From an uncultured Actinomycetota bacterium (GTDB taxonomy: Bacteria > Actinomycetota > Acidimicrobiia > Spongiisociales > UBA4744): a DNA stretch of 64,000 nt. The stretch spans positions 32,243 to 96,242 of the forward strand of contig CAVRAP010000019.1 of assembly GCA_963718995.1 (NCBI GenBank), read 5' to 3'. This document shows positions 27,996 to 46,064 of this stretch, in pieces (the stretch's first letter is position 1; each line of letters begins with the position of its first letter). Both the position numbers and the translations under genes were made by a program. A model generated the notes under the pieces. It ran no database searches and was not told the DNA's origin. It saw only the letters and a program-made list of their open reading frames with translations.

Positions 27996-28018
27996 GGCGA
28001 TCTCCGGGGACAAAAGAC

Positions 28019-28046
28019 CCGGAGGCGCATCGCAATGCGCCCCCGG
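28019..28046. terminator. Hairpin between convergent tyrA and cytochrome genes
   Basis: CCGGAGGCGCAT-CGCA-ATGCGCCCCCGG. Confidence 0.55.
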
Positions 28047-28068
28047 ACCGTCCTCTGGTTTCCTCTCC

Positions 28069-29448
28069 TCACGGGCCCGGTAGCACATCCACGATCACGT
28101 CCTGGTTGGCCGCGATCTCCTCAGGAAGTACTTTGTCGGCCGTCAGAAACAGCGAGGCGTTGCCGTGACAGGAGTCACACGACGCGTTCTGCGGGGTGTT
28201 CTTCTGGATGTTGTGGGGCGTGGCAGGCGCAAACGTCGGCCGGGCATCGAACTCAGGCAGCAGATTCGTCCCGTAGAACGAGAAGCTTTCCGGATCGATC
28301 GGCACATGGCGCACCACCGTGTAGCTCCAGGGCCGTTGCTCGGTTTGCTCGACGTTCTTGCCGATATAGAACGCCATCTGCGAAGGTTCGATCTTGTAGT
28401 AGGGCGTCCCTTCGTCCGATGTCTGCACGTGGCAGCTGTAGCAGTTCTTGTAGTCAACCGAGTGGCAGACCTGACACGACAGGTTCTCCGAGTGGAGCGA
28501 GTGCTGCTGGTTACCGTCGGCGCCGCCTTCGACGTCGGGGTGGCAGTCGATGCACTCCACGGCCGTTTCGTCGTAGCGGTGCGTCTGGGCCGGTCCCTCA
28601 CCGTGCATTTCCGCGTCACCATGACAGTCGAAACAAGCCATGCCGCCGGGGTTGAAATGAACGTCGGCCGGGTACATGCCACCGTCTGCTGTCACATTCT
28701 TCCCCTTGTACTCGTCGTTGACCCGGCTGCCGTGACAGCCCGTGCAGGTCAGGTTCATCGGCGGCGGGTTCTTGAACGAGTGTCCGTCGAGCAATCCACC
28801 ACCGGCACTGGTCGGCCGGCTCACATGGCATTGTCCACACGACGTGTGGCAGTCGGCGCAATGATTCTCGAAGGCCAACTCCAACCCGGGAGAGAGCTCC
28901 TCGCTGCCGGTCCTTTCGGCAAATACGGTCATGTAACCGTCGAGCGTCGAGTGCAAACTCATTGCATTGGTCGTGCTGATGTCGTTGTGGCAGCTCGAAC
29001 ATGTCTCGATCGCGTCCGGATCGCGCACCATGCCGGTGTGGGCCGCTTCTATCCCATTGGCCTGGCCGTCGCCGCCGTGGCAGGCAATGCAGCCGAGTGC
29101 CCCGTGGGTTGTTTCAAAGAACTCGTCGTCGCTGACAAAGACCTGTTCCCATGCCTCTAACTGAGGCACTGAGCCTCCTCAGCCTTCACCTTCGCTGAGG
29201 GTTTCGGTGGCAATAGGTTCGACGGCCATGGCCTGCAACGTGGCCTGGTCCGTGTGACAGGCCACACAACTGGCATCCGCGGCTGCGGATGGGTCGGTGG
29301 TGGTCGTCGTCGCGACCACCGTGGTCGTGGTTGTCTGCGGCACGGTCGTCTCGCTCGACGTCGTCGTGTCATCGGCACCACTGGTGCATCCGACCGCCAG
29401 GAGGGCGAAAAGCGCACTACCGATCAGCAATTGGATCGTCTTCTTCAT
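28069..29448 (-). CDS. Multiheme (11 CxxCH) cytochrome c lipoprotein, probable selenoprotein (UGA at 29181-29179 read as Sec), 459 aa
   Basis: ORFs 29179..29448 and 28069..29169 are in the same frame: LSEGEG-U-GGSVPQLEAWE; lipobox AVGC; one heme motif before the UGA and ten after. Confidence 0.85.
29151..29169 (-). promoter_or_regulatory. Candidate bacterial SECIS hairpin
   Basis: Minus strand TGCCTC-AGTTA-GAGGCA, starting 11 nt after the UGA; loop G at +18. Confidence 0.6.
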
Positions 29449-29466
29449 CTCACCTCCTCGGGTCGA

Positions 29467-29494
29467 GCGGGGCGCCGGGAGCCGGCGCCCCGCT
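29467..29494. other. Strong intercistronic stem-loop
   Basis: AGCGGGGCGCCGG pairs with CCGGCGCCCCGCT, between the rhodanese and cytochrome genes. Confidence 0.7.
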
Positions 29495-29505
29495 GGGTCG
29501 GAGAG

Positions 29506-30583
29506 TTATCCGGTGACGGTCGGGTAGTCGGGTGCCGTCGTGAACGGGGTGGTGCCGACCACGTCGGGGTCGTCGCTCCATCCCATCATCCCGAACTTCA
29601 TGTTGATGACGTCGTAGCCGAGCAGCTTCAGCGCCGTGGCGGCCGCCTGGCCGGTGTGGCCGGTGTAGCAGTACACCATGATCGGCTGATCGGTGGGCAG
29701 CATCGCCATATTGGCCGGGTCGGCGACGGCCTTCCAGCCGATGTTGATGGCACCCTCGACATGCCCGAGGGCATACACATCAGGCAGCCCGGACGCTCAC
29801 GACGAAGTAATCGTTGGAATCGTCACCGTCGGCCATGTTGTCGAACAGTTCCGACGCGCCCGTAACCGGCGTCCAGTCGGCCAGCATGGCCCGGGCCGCG
29901 GCAAGAGCGATGTCCGAAGCCTCGGTCTCCCCGGTAGCCAGCACCGGCAAGTCGTAGGTTTCGGTGGCAACGGTTGCCTCGGTGACGGTCGGATAGCCCG
30001 GCGAAGTCGTGAATGGGGTCGTCGCAACGACGTCGAGGTCGTTGGTCCAGCCCATCATTCCGAACTTCAGGTTGCTGACGTCATAGCCGAGGACCTTGAG
30101 CAGCGTTGCCGCCACCTGGCCGGTGTGGCCCGTGTAGCAATAGACGACGATCGGCTGATCGGTCGGCAGCATGGCCAGGCTGGCCTCGTCGACGATGCTC
30201 TTCCAGGGGATGTTGATGGCCCCTTCGATATGACCGAGGGCGTAGTGCTCAGGAGCCCGAACACTGACGATGAACGGGTCGTTCGACTCGTCACCGTCGG
30301 TCAGGTTCTCGTACAGGTCATTTGCCGAGATAACCGGTGTCCACTCGGCGAACTGCGCAGTGATCTGCCCGGCCAGCACCAACTCCTCGTCGACCATGAC
30401 GGCGGTGGTGGTCGTGGCTTCGGCCGTTGTGGTGGTGGCTTCGGTTGTGGTGGTGGCTTCGGTTGTGGCCACCGCAGTCGTGGTGGTCTCTTCAGCCGCG
30501 TCGTCGGCACAGCCGGCGAGCACGATCATGCTGAATACGGTCAGGACCGCCAGCAGTTTGAAGAACTTGGTTCTCCGGTACAT
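29506..30583 (-). CDS. Tandem two-domain rhodanese lipoprotein; apparent 1-nt insertion near 29785
   Basis: Lipobox LAGC, Thr-rich linker, two repeats of SVRA...YALGH.EGAINI and active-site CYTGHTG. Confidence 0.85.
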
Positions 30584-30594
30584 CAGGTTGCTCC

Positions 30595-30612
30595 TTGTGA
30601 ATCAATTCACAA
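30595..30612. promoter_or_regulatory. Rex operator
   Basis: TTGTGAA-TCAA-TTCACAA matches the Rex consensus TTGTGAA-N4-TTCACAA and abuts the AAGGAG RBS of the rhodanese gene. Confidence 0.8.
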
Positions 30613-30914: not shown

Positions 30915-32079
30915 CTAGCTCCAATCGCAGGCCATCAAACGCAGCATGGCCGTGGTCCCCGCCACGATGCCCGTTTCGATGGCAGCTTCGTCGATGTCGA
31001 ACCAGGCGGAGTGCAGGTCGGTTTTACGGTCGGGTAGTTGCGTGCCGAGCCGGAAGAGGGCGCCCGGGATTTCCTGGAGGAAGTAGGAGAAGTCCTCGGC
31101 TCCGAGGCTGGCGTGCGTCAACGCTACGGCGTGGGTTCCCAGCACGCTTGACACTGCATACTCCACTTCGGCGACCACGAACTGGTCGTTGATCACCGGG
31201 GGGATCCCGATTTCGTAATTGATCGTGGCGGTCGCTCCGAGCGGCGCGACAATCTCATGGACGAGCCTTTCGATGAGTTTGGGCATCTGTTCCCAGGTGT
31301 CGTGGTCGAGCGACCTGCAGGTTCCACTCAACTCGACCGAGGCGGGGATCACGTTGCCGGCGATGCCGCCCTGCACACGCCCGAAGACCAGCGAGAGCGG
31401 CATGCGGGCGTCGACGAGACGGTCCAGGAAGGCCGGGAGCTGGGTGATGACCTGGCCGGCGGCGAAGATCGTGTCGACCGAGTCATGCGGCCGGGCCGTA
31501 TGGCCACCGGGGCCGTCGACCGTGATGAGGAACCTATCCGATGAGCTGGTGATCGCGCCGGTCTTGAACCCGATCTGGCCGGGGGGGAGCGTTGGATCAA
31601 CATGGAAGGCGATGATCGCTTGCAACCCCGTCGATGGCGCCCTCGCGCAACAAGTCGTCGGCTCCGCCGGGGAAGAGCTCCTCGGCCGGCTGGAAGAGGA
31701 ATCTCACACGACCGGGGAGCGGGCCCAGCTCCTTGAGGGCCAGGGCGATGCCGACGGCAATAGCGGTATGGGCATCATGCCCACACGCATGCATGAGGCC
31801 GGGGAGTTCTGAAGCGAAGGGGAGGCCGGTTTGCTCATGAATCGGAAGTGCGTCCAGGTCTGCGCGAAACCCCACCAGGGAACCATGCTCCCCAAGCTCG
31901 GCGATCAGGCCGGTGTCGGCCGTCCTGACCTGGCTCGTGATACCGGCCCCGGCCAGCGCCCGGACCACCAGTTGGGTGGTCGCGAATTCCTGGCGTCCGA
32001 GTTCCGGGCGGCGGTGGATCGCCCGGCGCAACTCCACGGCGCGGGGTGCCACCCGCGTCCGCAATGGCTCGAACGTCAT
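30915..32079 (-). CDS. M20 amidohydrolase; apparent indel near 31627
   Basis: HRRPELG..E, RADLDALP, MHACGHDAH, FQPAEE, GGHTARPH, AEDFS. Confidence 0.88.
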
Positions 32080-32179: not shown

Positions 32180-35122
32180 TCAGTCCTTATAGAAGCTTTG
32201 CTCAACGAGTTTTCGAGCCCGTCTCGTGAGCCTCCGGTACTCCTCGCGGACCGAAGAACGCGGAGCATCGAATCGACCCAGAGAAAGGGCCAGGCGGGTC
32301 AATTCGTCCTGGTCGGTTGGAAGCGAATCGACCGGGCGGCCGAACTGAAGGAACAATCGGTTGCGCAGCATGCCGCAAAACCGGTACGCCGCACTGAGGT
32401 CCCGGGCCGCCTCTGGCGATAGATGTCCGGCATCAATCAGCCCTGCAAGGGCTGTCTCGGTCCCCGGTGTTTGCAGGCCGGGGTTTCGGCTGCCGAAGCG
32501 CATCTGGTGCAACTGGACGAGAAACTCGATGTCGTTCATGGCGCCTCGACCGAGCTTGAGGTGGAAATCCGGGTCCTCACCGGGGCCGAGCCGCTCCCGT
32601 TCGATGCGGGCTTTCATGGTGCGGATGGAGCGGATGGCGTCGGGGTTGAGGGTGTCGGGGTAGACGTGGGGGGAAATGAGTTGGGTGAAGCGTTGTCCGA
32701 GGTTGGGGTCGCCGGCGGCCGGGCGGGCTTTGATGAGCGATTGGAACTCCCAGGTTTGGGCCCATTTGTCGTAGTAGCCGGCGTACCCGTCCAGTGACCG
32801 GGCCAGGGGACCGTTCTTGCCTTCGGGGCGGAGGTCGGCGTCGACCCGGAAGGCGGCGCCTTCTGGGGTGACTTTGCCGAGGGCGGCCATGAACTCGGCT
32901 GCGATCTTGTTGGCGTACTGGCGGGCCGGTTCGGGGTCGACGTTGGGGGGCGTGTCGTAGACGAAGAGCAGGTCGATGTCGGAGGAGTAGTTGAGTTCTT
33001 GTCCGCCCCATTTGCCCATGGCGATCACCGTGAAGGGGATGGGGGGCAGGTCCGCGAAGAGAGGAGCGCGGCGGGTTTCCTGGTCGACGGCGGCCAGGGC
33101 GGCGGCGGCGGCTGCGTCGGCGGTGTCGGCCAGGTCCCGACCTACTTCGGGCATGGACACGTGACCCAACAGGTCCCGTACCGCAATCCACAACAACCGC
33201 CTCCGCACAAACCGCCGCACCGCCCGGAATTGCTCGGCATAGCTGGAGCGGAGCAGCACGTGGTGGGTGGCACTCTCGATGAGGGCCTCCTTGTCCGGGA
33301 GGGTGGCCAGGGCCCGGTCGTCGCCCAAACGGGAAAGGAACTCGGGGATTCGATCGAGCATCTGTCCGAGTAGACGACTCGTTCCCAGCAACCTGCAGAG
33401 ACGCTCCGCGGCAACCGGTACATCACGGAGCGTTCCGATCAGGGCGGCGTTGTCCGGGATGGAAGTCACCAGGAGTCGCAACTGCTCGAGCCCGAGATCC
33501 GGGTGGGGGGCGTCCGACAGCCAGTCCATCATCAGCGGCAACATCTGCTGCATGAGTCGCGAGCGTCTCGACAAGCCTGTGGTCAGCTCGGCCAATGCCC
33601 GTTTTGCTGCAGCGGCGTCCTGGAAACCCAGCGCCGCGAGTTGCCTCGCCGCTCCTTCCGGTGAAAGGTTGACTGCCGGGGAAGCTGCGAACACTTCGAG
33701 CAGGGGTCGGTAGAAGAGGCGCTCGTGGATAGTGCGAATGGTTGCCCGATGGTGGACGAGTTCCTTCTCAAATTGATCGAGGGCGTTCTGCTGGTCGTCG
33801 TCGCGGAATCCCATGCTCTTTGCCAGACGGGTTCGGGAGGCCTGATCACCCGGCAGCGTGTGGGTCTGTTGCAGGTCGTACAACTGGATGCGATGTTCGA
33901 GGTTGCGCAACCACTGGTAGGACGTGGCCAGATCCTGGGCATCATCGTCGCGGACGTAGTCGTGTTCTCCCAGGGTCACGAGCACGTCGAGCGTATTGGG
34001 TGATCGCAGTCCGTCGTCGAATCGGCCGTGCACGAGTTGCAGCAACTGCACGGCAAACTCCACGTCCCGGATGCCGCCGAATCCCCGCTTGATCTCGGAA
34101 TGCGAAACCCCGCTCTCCTCGGCACGACCTTCGATGCGGGCTTTCATGGTGCGGATGGAGCGGATGGCGTCGGGGTTGAGGGTGTCGGGGTAGACGTGGG
34201 GGGAAATGAGTTGGGTGAAGCGTTGTCCGAGGTTGGGGTCGCCGGCGGCCGGGCGGGCTTTGATGAGCGATTGGAACTCCCAGGTTTGGGCCCATTTGTC
34301 GTAGTAGCCGGCGTACCCGTCCAGTGACCGGGCCAGGGGACCGTTCTTGCCTTCGGGGCGGAGGTCGGCGTCGACCCGGAAGGCGGCGCCTTCTGGGGTG
34401 ACTTTGCCGAGGGCGGCCATGAACTCGGTTGCGATCTTGTTGGCGTACTGGCGGGCCGGTTCGGGGTCGACGTTGGGGGGCGTGTCGTAGACGAAGAGCA
34501 GGTCGATGTCGGAGGAGTAGTTGAGTTCTTGTCCGCCCCATTTGCCCATGGCGATCACCGTGAAGGGGATGGGGGGCAGGTCCGCGAAGAGAGGAGCGCG
34601 GCGGGTTTCCTGGTCGACGGCGGCCAGGGCGGCGGCGGCGGCTGCGTCGGCGGTGTCGGCCAGGTCCCGACCTACTTCGGGCATGGACACGTGACCCAAC
34701 AGGTCCCGTACCGCAATCCACAACAACCGCCTCCGCACAAACCGCCGCACCGCCATCAGTCGGTCGGATGGCGAACAGTCTGCCGCGAGGGTCTCGAGCT
34801 TGGGCTCCTCGAACGGTCGGAACCAATCGGGTTTGGCTCGAATGGTTGCCGACAACGCCCGGCTCGAGCCGGCGATGGCCACCAGGGCCCGGCCGACGTC
34901 GAGGTCGGAGAGAGCCCGCCCGGCGAGGACGGGCCCGGCCTCGAGGATGGTGATGATCCGTTCCAGAGTGGGGAGGGGCTCCGGTCCGCTGCGAACCGTC
35001 CGAAGCAATTCCAGGGCCGGTTGAGCTACCAGGCCATCGTCGCCGATCCACCCGACCGCCGCGAAACGGGGGCGGAGCAGCTCGGAGATCCCCAGCCGGG
35101 TCGGCGAAGCGTCCGTGGTCAT
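32180..35122 (-). CDS. glnE: Bifunctional glutamine synthetase adenylyltransferase/deadenylylase
   Basis: Two MGKWGGQELNYSSDID and VDADLRPEG cores, each followed by a substrate-binding region (IKRGFGGIRDVEF; LKLGRGAMNDIEF). Confidence 0.93.
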   Translation of the reverse strand: MTTDASPTRLGISELLRPRFAAVGWIGDDGLVAQPALELLRTVRSGPEPLPTLERIITILEAGPVLAGRALSDLDVGRALVAIAGSSRALSATIRAKPDWFRPFEEPKLETLAADCSPSDRLMAVRRFVRRRLLWIAVRDLLGHVSMPEVGRDLADTADAAAAAALAAVDQETRRAPLFADLPPIPFTVIAMGKWGGQELNYSSDIDLLFVYDTPPNVDPEPARQYANKIATEFMAALGKVTPEGAAFRVDADLRPEGKNGPLARSLDGYAGYYDKWAQTWEFQSLIKARPAAGDPNLGQRFTQLISPHVYPDTLNPDAIRSIRTMKARIEGRAEESGVSHSEIKRGFGGIRDVEFAVQLLQLVHGRFDDGLRSPNTLDVLVTLGEHDYVRDDDAQDLATSYQWLRNLEHRIQLYDLQQTHTLPGDQASRTRLAKSMGFRDDDQQNALDQFEKELVHHRATIRTIHERLFYRPLLEVFAASPAVNLSPEGAARQLAALGFQDAAAAKRALAELTTGLSRRSRLMQQMLPLMMDWLSDAPHPDLGLEQLRLLVTSIPDNAALIGTLRDVPVAAERLCRLLGTSRLLGQMLDRIPEFLSRLGDDRALATLPDKEALIESATHHVLLRSSYAEQFRAVRRFVRRRLLWIAVRDLLGHVSMPEVGRDLADTADAAAAAALAAVDQETRRAPLFADLPPIPFTVIAMGKWGGQELNYSSDIDLLFVYDTPPNVDPEPARQYANKIAAEFMAALGKVTPEGAAFRVDADLRPEGKNGPLARSLDGYAGYYDKWAQTWEFQSLIKARPAAGDPNLGQRFTQLISPHVYPDTLNPDAIRSIRTMKARIERERLGPGEDPDFHLKLGRGAMNDIEFLVQLHQMRFGSRNPGLQTPGTETALAGLIDAGHLSPEAARDLSAAYRFCGMLRNRLFLQFGRPVDSLPTDQDELTRLALSLGRFDAPRSSVREEYRRLTRRARKLVEQSFYKD
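32600..33224. repeat. 625-nt intragenic direct repeat, copy in the C-terminal half of glnE
   Basis: Matches 34130-34754 (offset 1530) with one mismatch seen, 32899 vs 34429. Confidence 0.92.
34130..34754. repeat. 625-nt intragenic direct repeat, copy in the N-terminal half of glnE
   Basis: Matches 32600-33224. Confidence 0.92.
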
Positions 35123-45017: not shown

Positions 45018-46064
45018 ATGGTGGCGGTGAAACTGACCGAGTTTTCGCACGGCAGCGGTTGAGCTTGCAAGCTCGGCCCTGACGAGCTGGCGCAGGTCTT
45101 GCGCCCCTTGCACAACCATCCAACCACGGTCCACCCCGACCTGGTCGTCGGCCTCAATACCGGCGACGACGCCGGGGTCCTGCGCTTGCCCGACGGACGT
45201 CTCATGGTGCAGACGGTGGACTACTTCACTCCTGTGGTCGACGATCCCAACGATTGGGGACGGATCGCTGCGGCCAATGCACTTTCGGATATCTACGCCA
45301 TGGGCGCCACCCCGAGCACCGCTTTGCAGCTCATCGGCTGGCCGCGCGACAAGCTCTCCTTCGAGCTACTCGGCGAGGTGATCGTGGGCGGGATCGGCAC
45401 ATTGGAAGAGGCCGGCTGTCTGTTGATCGGCGGTCACTCGATCGACGCTCCCGAACCGACGTACGGGTTTGCCGTCACCGGGTTCGTCGACCCGGACCAA
45501 CTCACGTCCAACGGTGGAGCCCGTCCCGGCGATCGGCTGGTCCTCACCAAACCGATCGGGACGGGCATCATCTCAACGGCGGTCAAGAACGGCCGCGCCG
45601 ATCCGGCGGTCATCGCCGAGGCCATCGAGGTGATGGCGGAACTCAACGCCGGTGCGGCTCGCGCCATGGCCGCCGTCGGCGTTCATGCGGCGACCGATGT
45701 GACCGGCTTCGGTCTCCTCGGCCACCTGGGGGAGATGCTGATGGCGAGTGGGGTGGCCGCGGTCGTCGAGCACCATGCCGTGCCGCTCATCGAAGGTACA
45801 CGGGAACTGGCCGAGGCCGGTGTCGTGCCAGGAGGGACGGGCCGAAACCTGATTGCGGCTGAGCGGTTCACCGACTTCGGCGGACTCGATGCTGCCGATC
45901 GGCTCATCCTGGCCGACGCCCAGACGAGTGGCGGCTTGCTGATTGCGGTTGCCGCCGCCAAGGCTCTCGAACTGACTGAAGCACTCGCGGCTGAGCACAC
46001 CCGCGCCGCGGCCATCGTTGGTGAGATCGTCGAGGATCGACCCGGCACTATCGACGTCCGCTAG
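45018..46064 (+). CDS. selD: Selenophosphate synthetase, selenocysteine-containing (UGA at 45060-45062)
   Basis: AAGGAGG RBS; MVAVKLTEFSHGSG-U-ACKLGP in frame with ORF 45099; DDAGV, QTVDYFTP, AANALSDIYAMG, DAQTSGGLL. Confidence 0.95.

Follow-up and report, generated by a model that had tools for sequence, protein, structure and literature searches.

An 11-haem cytochrome with a predicted selenocysteine and its tandem-rhodanese partner, a conserved lipoprotein gene pair of Chloroflexota and some Acidimicrobiia

The window studied here, a stretch of 64,000 nucleotides from an uncultured Actinomycetota bacterium (contig CAVRAP010000019.1), carries a two-gene operon that closes at a terminator and, as read from its sequence, encodes two lipid-anchored proteins of the outer face of the cytoplasmic membrane: a tandem rhodanese and an 11-haem c-type cytochrome whose in-frame UGA almost certainly encodes selenocysteine (Sec). 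Judged from the genomes compared, Chloroflexota (mostly Anaerolineae) and some Acidimicrobiia/Actinomycetota share the pair as a conserved module. By analogy, we lean slightly towards the view that the module is an independent, analogous multihaem selenoenzyme which would reduce rhodanese-delivered sulfane sulfur outside the cytoplasm, acting as a terminal reductase. The window is contig C19 of a 22-contig, 2.66-Mb assembly (designated G000) rated 90% complete, the nearest public relatives of which are metagenome-assembled genomes labelled Acidimicrobiia or Actinomycetota. The operon lies on the minus strand (28016–30612) in the order operator-like box, Shine-Dalgarno sequence, rhodanese gene, spacer, cytochrome gene and terminator-like hairpin.

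The cytochrome gene (28069–29448, minus strand; codons 28072–29448 plus stop) specifies 459 amino acids when the TGA at 29179–29181 (minus strand) is read as Sec at residue 90 (Sec90), within the motif LSEGEG-U-GGS. The codon, hairpin and linkage counts given below were drawn from the best 80 of 375 confirmed related loci. TGA occupied the residue-90 codon in 78 of the 80, within a nearly invariant SEGEG-U-GG; of the two loci without it, L088 is cut by a contig end and L070 has TGG. In 77 of 78 loci the TGA is preceded, in frame, by the CxxCH motif of haem 1, and among the matches in related genomes the 15 rows that extend across residue 90 all had one TGA. The piece downstream of the UGA lacks a signal peptide and, since c-type cytochromes need export, this supports readthrough of the UGA as Sec. 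L070 (6103) was the sole close relative with a Trp codon in place of that for Sec; it is also devoid of an upstream rhodanese gene, and its genome has SelA. Among 36 full-length representatives without the UGA, ten had Cys at the corresponding position (GEG-C-GG in P0144, for instance) and the remaining 26 assorted residues in a loop that aligns poorly.

A hairpin resembling a bacterial selenocysteine insertion sequence (SECIS) was located just downstream (29151–29169, minus strand), with a core stem formed by 29163–29167 and 29153–29157 and a loop at 29158–29162 (AGUUA). It begins 11 nt after the UGA, as in all 79 aligned sequences, in which the 5-bp core was kept. Pair 24:38 was GC in 60 sequences, CG in 12, AU in three, GU in three and other in one, pair 28:34 was CG in 78 and GC in one, and the second loop position was an invariant G. 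The covariation score of the hairpin was reached by none of 500 shuffles and every slid control scored lower; as read from the alignment, several changes that alter the amino acid on one side of the stem are accompanied by a silent one on the opposite side. The criteria for a bacterial SECIS, in the portion of PMC13188914 used here, are a stem-loop soon after the UGA and a G or U early in a small apical loop. The original prediction had called for a genome search for the Sec machinery and for rex, and all the parts sought were present: SelA (389.7 bits), SelB (329.5 bits), SelD (393.9 bits) and tRNA-Sec, with Rex as described below. SelA was also detected in all five sampled genomes carrying the cytochrome family. 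ARAGORN reported two tRNA-Sec genes in G000, at C10:13785–13877 and C10:15042–15128, 1.2 kb apart, the second being shorter.

The translated cytochrome consists of a signal peptide, a lipobox (LAVGC), a Thr-rich linker of about 35 residues, haem 1 (CVACH), the LSEGEG-U-GGS segment and ten further CxxCH motifs, so that Sec90 sits between haem 1 and haem 2. The count of 11 CxxCH, ten of which a script found in the piece after the UGA, bears out what had been predicted, as do the lipoboxes of the two co-oriented genes (LAVGC in the cytochrome and LAGC in the rhodanese), which were read directly from the sequence. A pattern search was used for the relatives: the strict lipobox pattern was matched in 58 of 74 available cytochrome N-termini and seven more lipoboxes were recognised by eye. 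Eleven conserved non-motif His were found for the 11 haems, with H196 present in 98% of rows, and the alignment contained no conserved Cys outside the CxxCH motifs.

In Pfam only generic multihaem families were matched, among them PF22113 (MtrC/MtrF domain II/IV) over residues 120–281 with 42.2 bits against a cut-off of 30. No NCBIfam model scored above its cut-off, the best being ExtM with 33.3 bits versus a cut-off of 800; NF040886 (ExtKL), NF041027 (GSU2204 family) and TIGR04315 (octahaem tetrathionate reductase) were absent from the matches at E up to 10, in a search by HMMER, the filters of which discard very weak matches. A phmmer search against the PDB sequences returned no matches at E up to 1. 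An AlphaFold2 model built with 87 aligned sequences reached a pLDDT of 87.3 and a pTM of 0.82, with values of 81–91 in the Sec loop and disorder limited to the signal peptide and the linker. Foldseek gave no matches of this model to PDB folds at E up to 0.001; the best weak matches were hydroxylamine oxidoreductases with TM about 0.2. Thus, a characterised family with another function, which had been named as the outcome that would speak against the proposal, was found neither in NCBIfam nor among PDB sequences or folds.

The tandem-rhodanese lipoprotein gene (29506–30583, minus strand) encodes a protein in which the LAGC lipobox is followed by a linker rich in Thr and Ala and by two rhodanese domains; the active-site loop is CYTGHTG in both, with the persulfide-forming Cys kept. 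Its two pieces in this assembly match PF00581 with 62.6 and 44.3 bits. The predicted domains and both loops are therefore present; the frame is not intact. It meets a TGA (29780–29782) after residue 267 and domain 2 runs on in another frame, owing to an extra base at 29785 (minus strand) that was recognised by alignment with L012, L014, L015 and L017 and that shifts the frame and creates the TGA. In agreement with this, tblastn with an intact relative placed the frame switch between 29786 and 29784, and the intact L012 orthologue has 360 amino acids with two PF00581 stretches. An adjacent M20-type amidohydrolase gene (30918–32079, minus strand) is split into two overlapping frames near 31625, and the 394-aa L012 orthologue aligns across both, which makes two frameshifts within 2.3 kb. 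Since the neighbouring gene is split likewise, an assembly indel is as likely as a real pseudogene, and we regard an indel at 29785 as plausible. Three contig pieces crossing 29785 show one gap each and neither confirm nor remove the frameshift; the four metagenomes compared (labelled soil, sediment and beach sand) contain contigs of relatives, mostly 90–99% alike, and not of the source strain. The DNA sequencing runs matching the region did so with shares that were all 0.13 or less, and no RNA run was listed among the matches.

The linkage of the two genes, predicted to be conserved, proved to be so. Among the 58 loci whose upstream sequence is 1800 nt or longer, 52 have a co-oriented tandem-rhodanese gene no more than 2.5 kb ahead of the cytochrome gene, namely 9/9 of the Actinomycetota type and 43/49 of the others, the loci lacking it being L047, L049, L053, L066, L070 and L083. 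Some loci hold two or three tandem-rhodanese genes, and in L039 (3442–5586) a single gene has four rhodanese domains. The loop Cys was kept in all 138 neighbouring rhodanese domains. In L063 (2771–5728) a membrane cytochrome with 12 CxxCH and four rhodanese domains are encoded together in one frame of 985 aa, a fusion that probably explains the sulfurtransferase names given by JGI to many of the cytochrome pieces.

Most often, the Chloroflexota pair forms the terminal part of a longer operon, of which two forms were seen. The first encodes a 4Fe-4S protein with a Tat signal (closest to DsrO, TtrB and NrfC, each scoring below its cut-off), an NrfD-family membrane protein, a membrane-anchored 10–12-haem cytochrome, the rhodanese and the selenocytochrome; a PadR-DUF4388 regulator is often encoded divergently. 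The second contains a cytochrome b561-multihaem fusion, a NapC/NirT-type cytochrome downstream and a LysR regulator. The partner families identified in the non-Actinomycetota loci were PF03916, PF13247, PF01292 and PF03264. Of the 41 non-Actinomycetota loci in which the upstream sequence extends for 5 kb or more, 22 have same-strand NrfD or cytochrome b-multihaem genes, as against none of seven Actinomycetota-type loci. The original prediction, noting no membrane quinol-oxidising partner in the window, had held that one must be encoded elsewhere or that the system works differently; such partners do occur in the Chloroflexota operons, and none of the NrfD or NapC type was found in G000.

Another part of G000 may fill this role. 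At C11:1175–3949 (L098) there are genes for a cytochrome b6, a subunit IV-c-type fusion and a protein of 459 aa whose class-I domains contain six CxxCH; the cluster encodes an unusual bc-type complex, which is a candidate electron donor. An NrfC-like match at C6:1295–1579 was rejected as an operon partner, as it sits among frames read by eye as nitrate-reductase-like. Elsewhere in the assembly, at C20:621633–622979 (L097:6718–7983), a 421-aa secreted protein with 18 CxxCH is encoded next to frames that by eye resemble a histidine kinase and a LuxR-type response regulator.

In a library that represents 185,579 species by one genome each, 375 stretches were confirmed to contain relatives of the cytochrome, and the family comprised 693 representatives at 50% identity; it is therefore not rare. 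By our own count, 111 of the 120 best database matches were a 354–375-aa piece without signal peptide that begins after the UGA. Gene callers thus cut the protein at the UGA, and the family becomes invisible both as a secreted enzyme and as a selenoprotein. Its spread is patchy, the cytochrome being present in 16 of 41 relatives (G000 included) and in 13 of 19 in the same family. In a tree built by a quick search and rooted at the midpoint, the 13 Actinomycetota-type sequences formed one group (support 87) nested in a clade (support 98) that was otherwise from Chloroflexota, as were all the deeper Sec-type branches. This topology tentatively suggests a single transfer of the two-gene operon end from Chloroflexota into Actinomycetota.

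Upstream of the rhodanese gene, and abutting its ribosome-binding site (GGAG), a motif scan located the palindrome TTGTGAATCAATTCACAA (30595–30612), a Rex-type operator of the form TTGTGAA-N4-TTCACAA, which we take to be the consensus of the Rex operator. Rex keeps genes of respiration and fermentation repressed for as long as NADH does not rise. The box was the sole match in the window at two or fewer mismatches (shuffles gave 0.06) and, as had been predicted for it, a perfect one; it was the only perfect TTGTGAA-N4-TTCACAA in the 2.66-Mb assembly, in which two further sites occurred at two or fewer mismatches. One Rex-like site with two mismatches, C7:30291 (L095:2292), lies between glyA (serine hydroxymethyltransferase) and the ATP synthase operon. 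A perfect box was also found upstream of the rhodanese gene in L012–L015 and L017, with 4-nt spacers that all differ, and one with a single mismatch in L016. G000 encodes Rex itself (278.9 bits versus a cut-off of 226). In this Acidimicrobiia lineage the operon is thus probably, as far as the operator pattern indicates, repressed by Rex and derepressed when the NADH/NAD+ ratio rises, as when oxygen is short.

For the terminal reductase that we favour, we infer both the substrate and the direction of electron flow. With polysulfide, elemental sulfur or a similar compound as donor, the rhodanese would bind sulfane sulfur in the form of a Cys persulfide and would pass it to the selenolate of Sec90; electrons moving along the haem chain would then reduce the Se-S bond, and sulfide would be released. 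In Chloroflexota, quinol electrons would enter through the NrfC/NrfD-like, cytochrome b561-multihaem or NapC-like proteins of the same operon. In the Acidimicrobiia lineage the donor would be encoded elsewhere, the cytochrome b6/subunit IV/multi-c cluster of C11 being the candidate, and Rex would release the operon as NADH/NAD+ rises. A more specific version, which we put forward as a conjecture with somewhat less than even confidence, is that the module represents a second, independently evolved class of multihaem selenoenzyme, the terminal sulfur/polysulfide reductase of monoderm-type bacteria. In it a lone Sec without partner Cys would take sulfur directly from a doubly active rhodanese and an 11-haem wire would recycle it, and one transfer from Chloroflexota to Actinomycetota would have lost the quinol dehydrogenase and gained Rex control.

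Several observations weigh against this interpretation. As no relation between the cytochrome and the Geobacter selenoenzyme MccSep (considered below) was detectable, the function rests on analogy and on gene linkage. All 11 haems could, from the conserved residues, be bis-His ligated; with 11 conserved non-motif His and no conserved non-motif Cys, a Cys-ligated catalytic haem like that of MccSep is not evident. Some members of the Sec-type clade in the quick tree have Leu, Trp, Gln or His at the Sec site, in a loop whose alignment is uncertain, and such non-Cys replacements inside that clade are atypical of a catalytic Sec and speak against a strictly essential residue. In addition, the rhodanese frame is interrupted in the present assembly. 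Besides the Rex pattern, the box matches the looser CRP/FNR-type core TGTGA-N6-TCACA, and this core is all that the Chloroflexota sites retain, which leaves Rex as the probable rather than the proven regulator; moreover, the box adjoins the ribosome-binding site, and a promoter scan found no site of the sigma-70 type. In G000, at its 90% completeness, neither an NrfD nor a NapC/NirT partner was found, nor were genes for haem-c maturation (ResB, CcsA/CcmC/CcmF, CcmE), a system that the original prediction had proposed to look for. CcmC/CcmF-type genes were nevertheless present in all nine same-genus genomes, and in 19 of 21 genomes counting G000 (a tally that includes the unpublished genome G016, of which the same-genus count is independent); the gap in G000 is therefore probably one of assembly.

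The same parts could work in the reverse direction, the module oxidising thiosulfate, sulfide or polysulfide at the cell surface and feeding the respiratory chain in a TsdA- or Sox-like manner, a possibility that we consider unlikely. Rhodaneses serve sulfur oxidation too, multihaem chains conduct both ways, and G000 appears to hold parts for aerobic and nitrate-type respiration (the cytochrome b cluster and, by eye, the nitrate-reductase-like frames of C6). A Rex-type operator, however, marks genes of NADH reoxidation, unlike what would be expected for a donor-side enzyme, and the NrfD, NapC and cytochrome b561 proteins of the Chloroflexota operons are usual donors to terminal reductases. Furthermore, the sole multihaem selenoenzyme characterised, according to the sections of PMC13510729 drawn on here, is a reductase.

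Handling of selenium rather than sulfur, i.e. a surface reduction of selenite or tellurite that would serve to detoxify them or to acquire selenium, the rhodanese acting as selenium carrier, also appears decidedly unlikely. MccSep does reduce selenite (PMC13510729, in part) and the Geobacter ext cluster has been tied to selenite/tellurite reduction (PMC5877670, in part), ExtM being named a 'selenite/tellurite reduction operon' cytochrome in NCBIfam, and selD lies in the window. On the other hand, selenite is the poorer substrate of this single characterised analogue, the 15 kb that separate selD from the operon do not amount to linkage, and the quinol-linked partners in Chloroflexota suggest bulk electron flow and not the handling of a trace element.

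It is improbable that the cytochrome is a general surface conduit of monoderms carrying electrons to metals, electrodes or shuttles, with Sec and the rhodanese as accessories. The match to the MtrC/MtrF domain, the lipid anchor and the long linkers would suit a conduit, and Anaerolineae are rich in multihaem cytochromes (10.1101/2021.08.23.457424, in part), but the near-invariant Sec, the near-obligate tandem rhodanese and the full retention of the rhodanese active-site Cys would be left unexplained. Finally, it is highly improbable that the locus is a strain-specific decaying relic, in which the rhodanese frameshift would be real and the UGA would stop translation to leave a small monohaem lipoprotein and a useless remainder: one extra base does break the rhodanese frame, and downstream of the UGA a GGAGG with a GTG behind it might pass for a start site, but the cytochrome frame is intact and 84–89% identical to four same-genus orthologues, the 366-aa post-UGA piece would have no export signal, the second gene, 2 kb away, is split likewise, which points to assembly indels, and the UGA and hairpin are conserved across two phyla.

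As to the surroundings of the operon, the spacer between the rhodanese and cytochrome genes has 57 nt and contains GGAGG, and a terminator-like hairpin of the intrinsic type (28016–28049, minus strand; 15 pairs, then TTTTGT) directly follows the cytochrome stop codon. The pair is flanked by genes for DAHP synthase and prephenate dehydrogenase on one side and by the amidohydrolase gene and glnE on the other; given these neighbours, it stands alone. The selenophosphate synthetase gene selD (45030–45962, plus strand), a part of the Sec machinery outside the operon, has one in-frame TGA and is thus itself a selenoprotein gene. In glnE (32183–35122, minus strand) two 300-nt stretches, 32600–32899 and 34130–34429, are 100% identical and 1530 nt apart, so that both nucleotidyltransferase halves of GlnE have a long identical segment in common; this may reflect a recent internal conversion or an assembly artefact.

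If the version with a second class of sulfur reductase is true, many Anaerolineae and some Acidimicrobiia that are now read as plain heterotrophs could respire sulfur. Recognition of the family supplies a candidate through which sulfur respiration can be tested in uncultured lineages that are abundant, and a natural experiment on the role of Sec beside haems. The annotation of the post-UGA pieces, many of which are labelled 'thiosulfate/3-mercaptopyruvate sulfurtransferase' by JGI, is to be corrected.

A literature search yielded no account of a multihaem cytochrome with Sec from either Chloroflexota or Actinomycetota, nor of its pairing with a rhodanese; supplementary survey tables might list it. 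The portion of a 2026 selenoproteome review used here (PMC13188914) gives three haem-related selenoprotein families, none of which matches the window cytochrome. Among them, the GSU2204 family (NF041027) and the octahaem tetrathionate reductase (TIGR04315) are, like the window cytochrome, c-type cytochrome/CxxCH proteins with Sec (PMC13188914, in part), and neither model was matched; membership in TIGR04315 was rejected on the lack of a match at E up to 10.

MtrC and OmcA share with the window cytochrome the PF22113 stretch and the nature of lipid-anchored surface cytochromes; they have neither Sec nor a rhodanese partner, and the remainder of the window cytochrome is unmatched, so that the overall architecture differs. 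In Wolinella succinogenes the periplasmic rhodanese-type protein Sud carries polysulfide sulfur to the quinol-linked PsrABC. This system resembles the Chloroflexota operons in having an NrfD-family membrane subunit and a 4Fe-4S subunit. The catalytic subunit of PsrABC is a molybdopterin enzyme, whereas here it would be a multihaem selenoprotein, and no molybdopterin subunit was seen in the selenocytochrome loci.

The closest comparison is with MccSep (ExtKL, GSU2937-2936) of Geobacter sulfurreducens, a periplasmic 5-haem selenoprotein. In the sections of PMC13510729 consulted, in which biochemistry, crystal structures and genetics are combined, it is a polysulfide reductase needed for sulfur respiration with a weaker selenite activity; it was characterised in 2026 and presented as the missing sulfur reductase of Desulfobacterota, and 684 genomes encoding it, mainly of Desulfobacterota and Nitrospirota, were reported (PMC13510729, in part). 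A reference title in the same source indicates that its gene cluster encodes the rhodanese-like lipoprotein ExtH. The pairing of ExtH with ExtKL had been invoked in the original prediction. With 11 haems rather than five, a Sec90 near the N-terminus, no match to NF040886 and no PDB sequence or fold match, membership of the window cytochrome in the ExtKL/MccSep family is ruled out, and the comparison is one of analogy and not of homology. In MccSep, Sec is residue 325 in a C-terminal Ig-like domain (D-G-U-P) and a conserved Cys ligates a haem (both from the portion of the source used here), whereas Sec90 lies in an N-terminal Gly-rich loop (E-G-U-G-G) before haem 2 of a protein without conserved Cys outside CxxCH; MccSep is soluble in the periplasm of a diderm, and the window cytochrome is a lipoprotein of monoderm-type phyla. 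Both are, as far as that portion of the source goes, extracytoplasmic multihaem c-type cytochromes with one Sec, the in-frame UGA of which splits the annotation into two genes and is followed at once by a SECIS-like hairpin, and in both cases a rhodanese lipoprotein is encoded alongside. Multihaem selenoenzymes with a rhodanese partner have thus been known as a kind since 2026, and the protein family described here, its architecture, the phyla and the regulation are apparently new; the logic of MccSep would be repeated here with an unrelated protein in other phyla.

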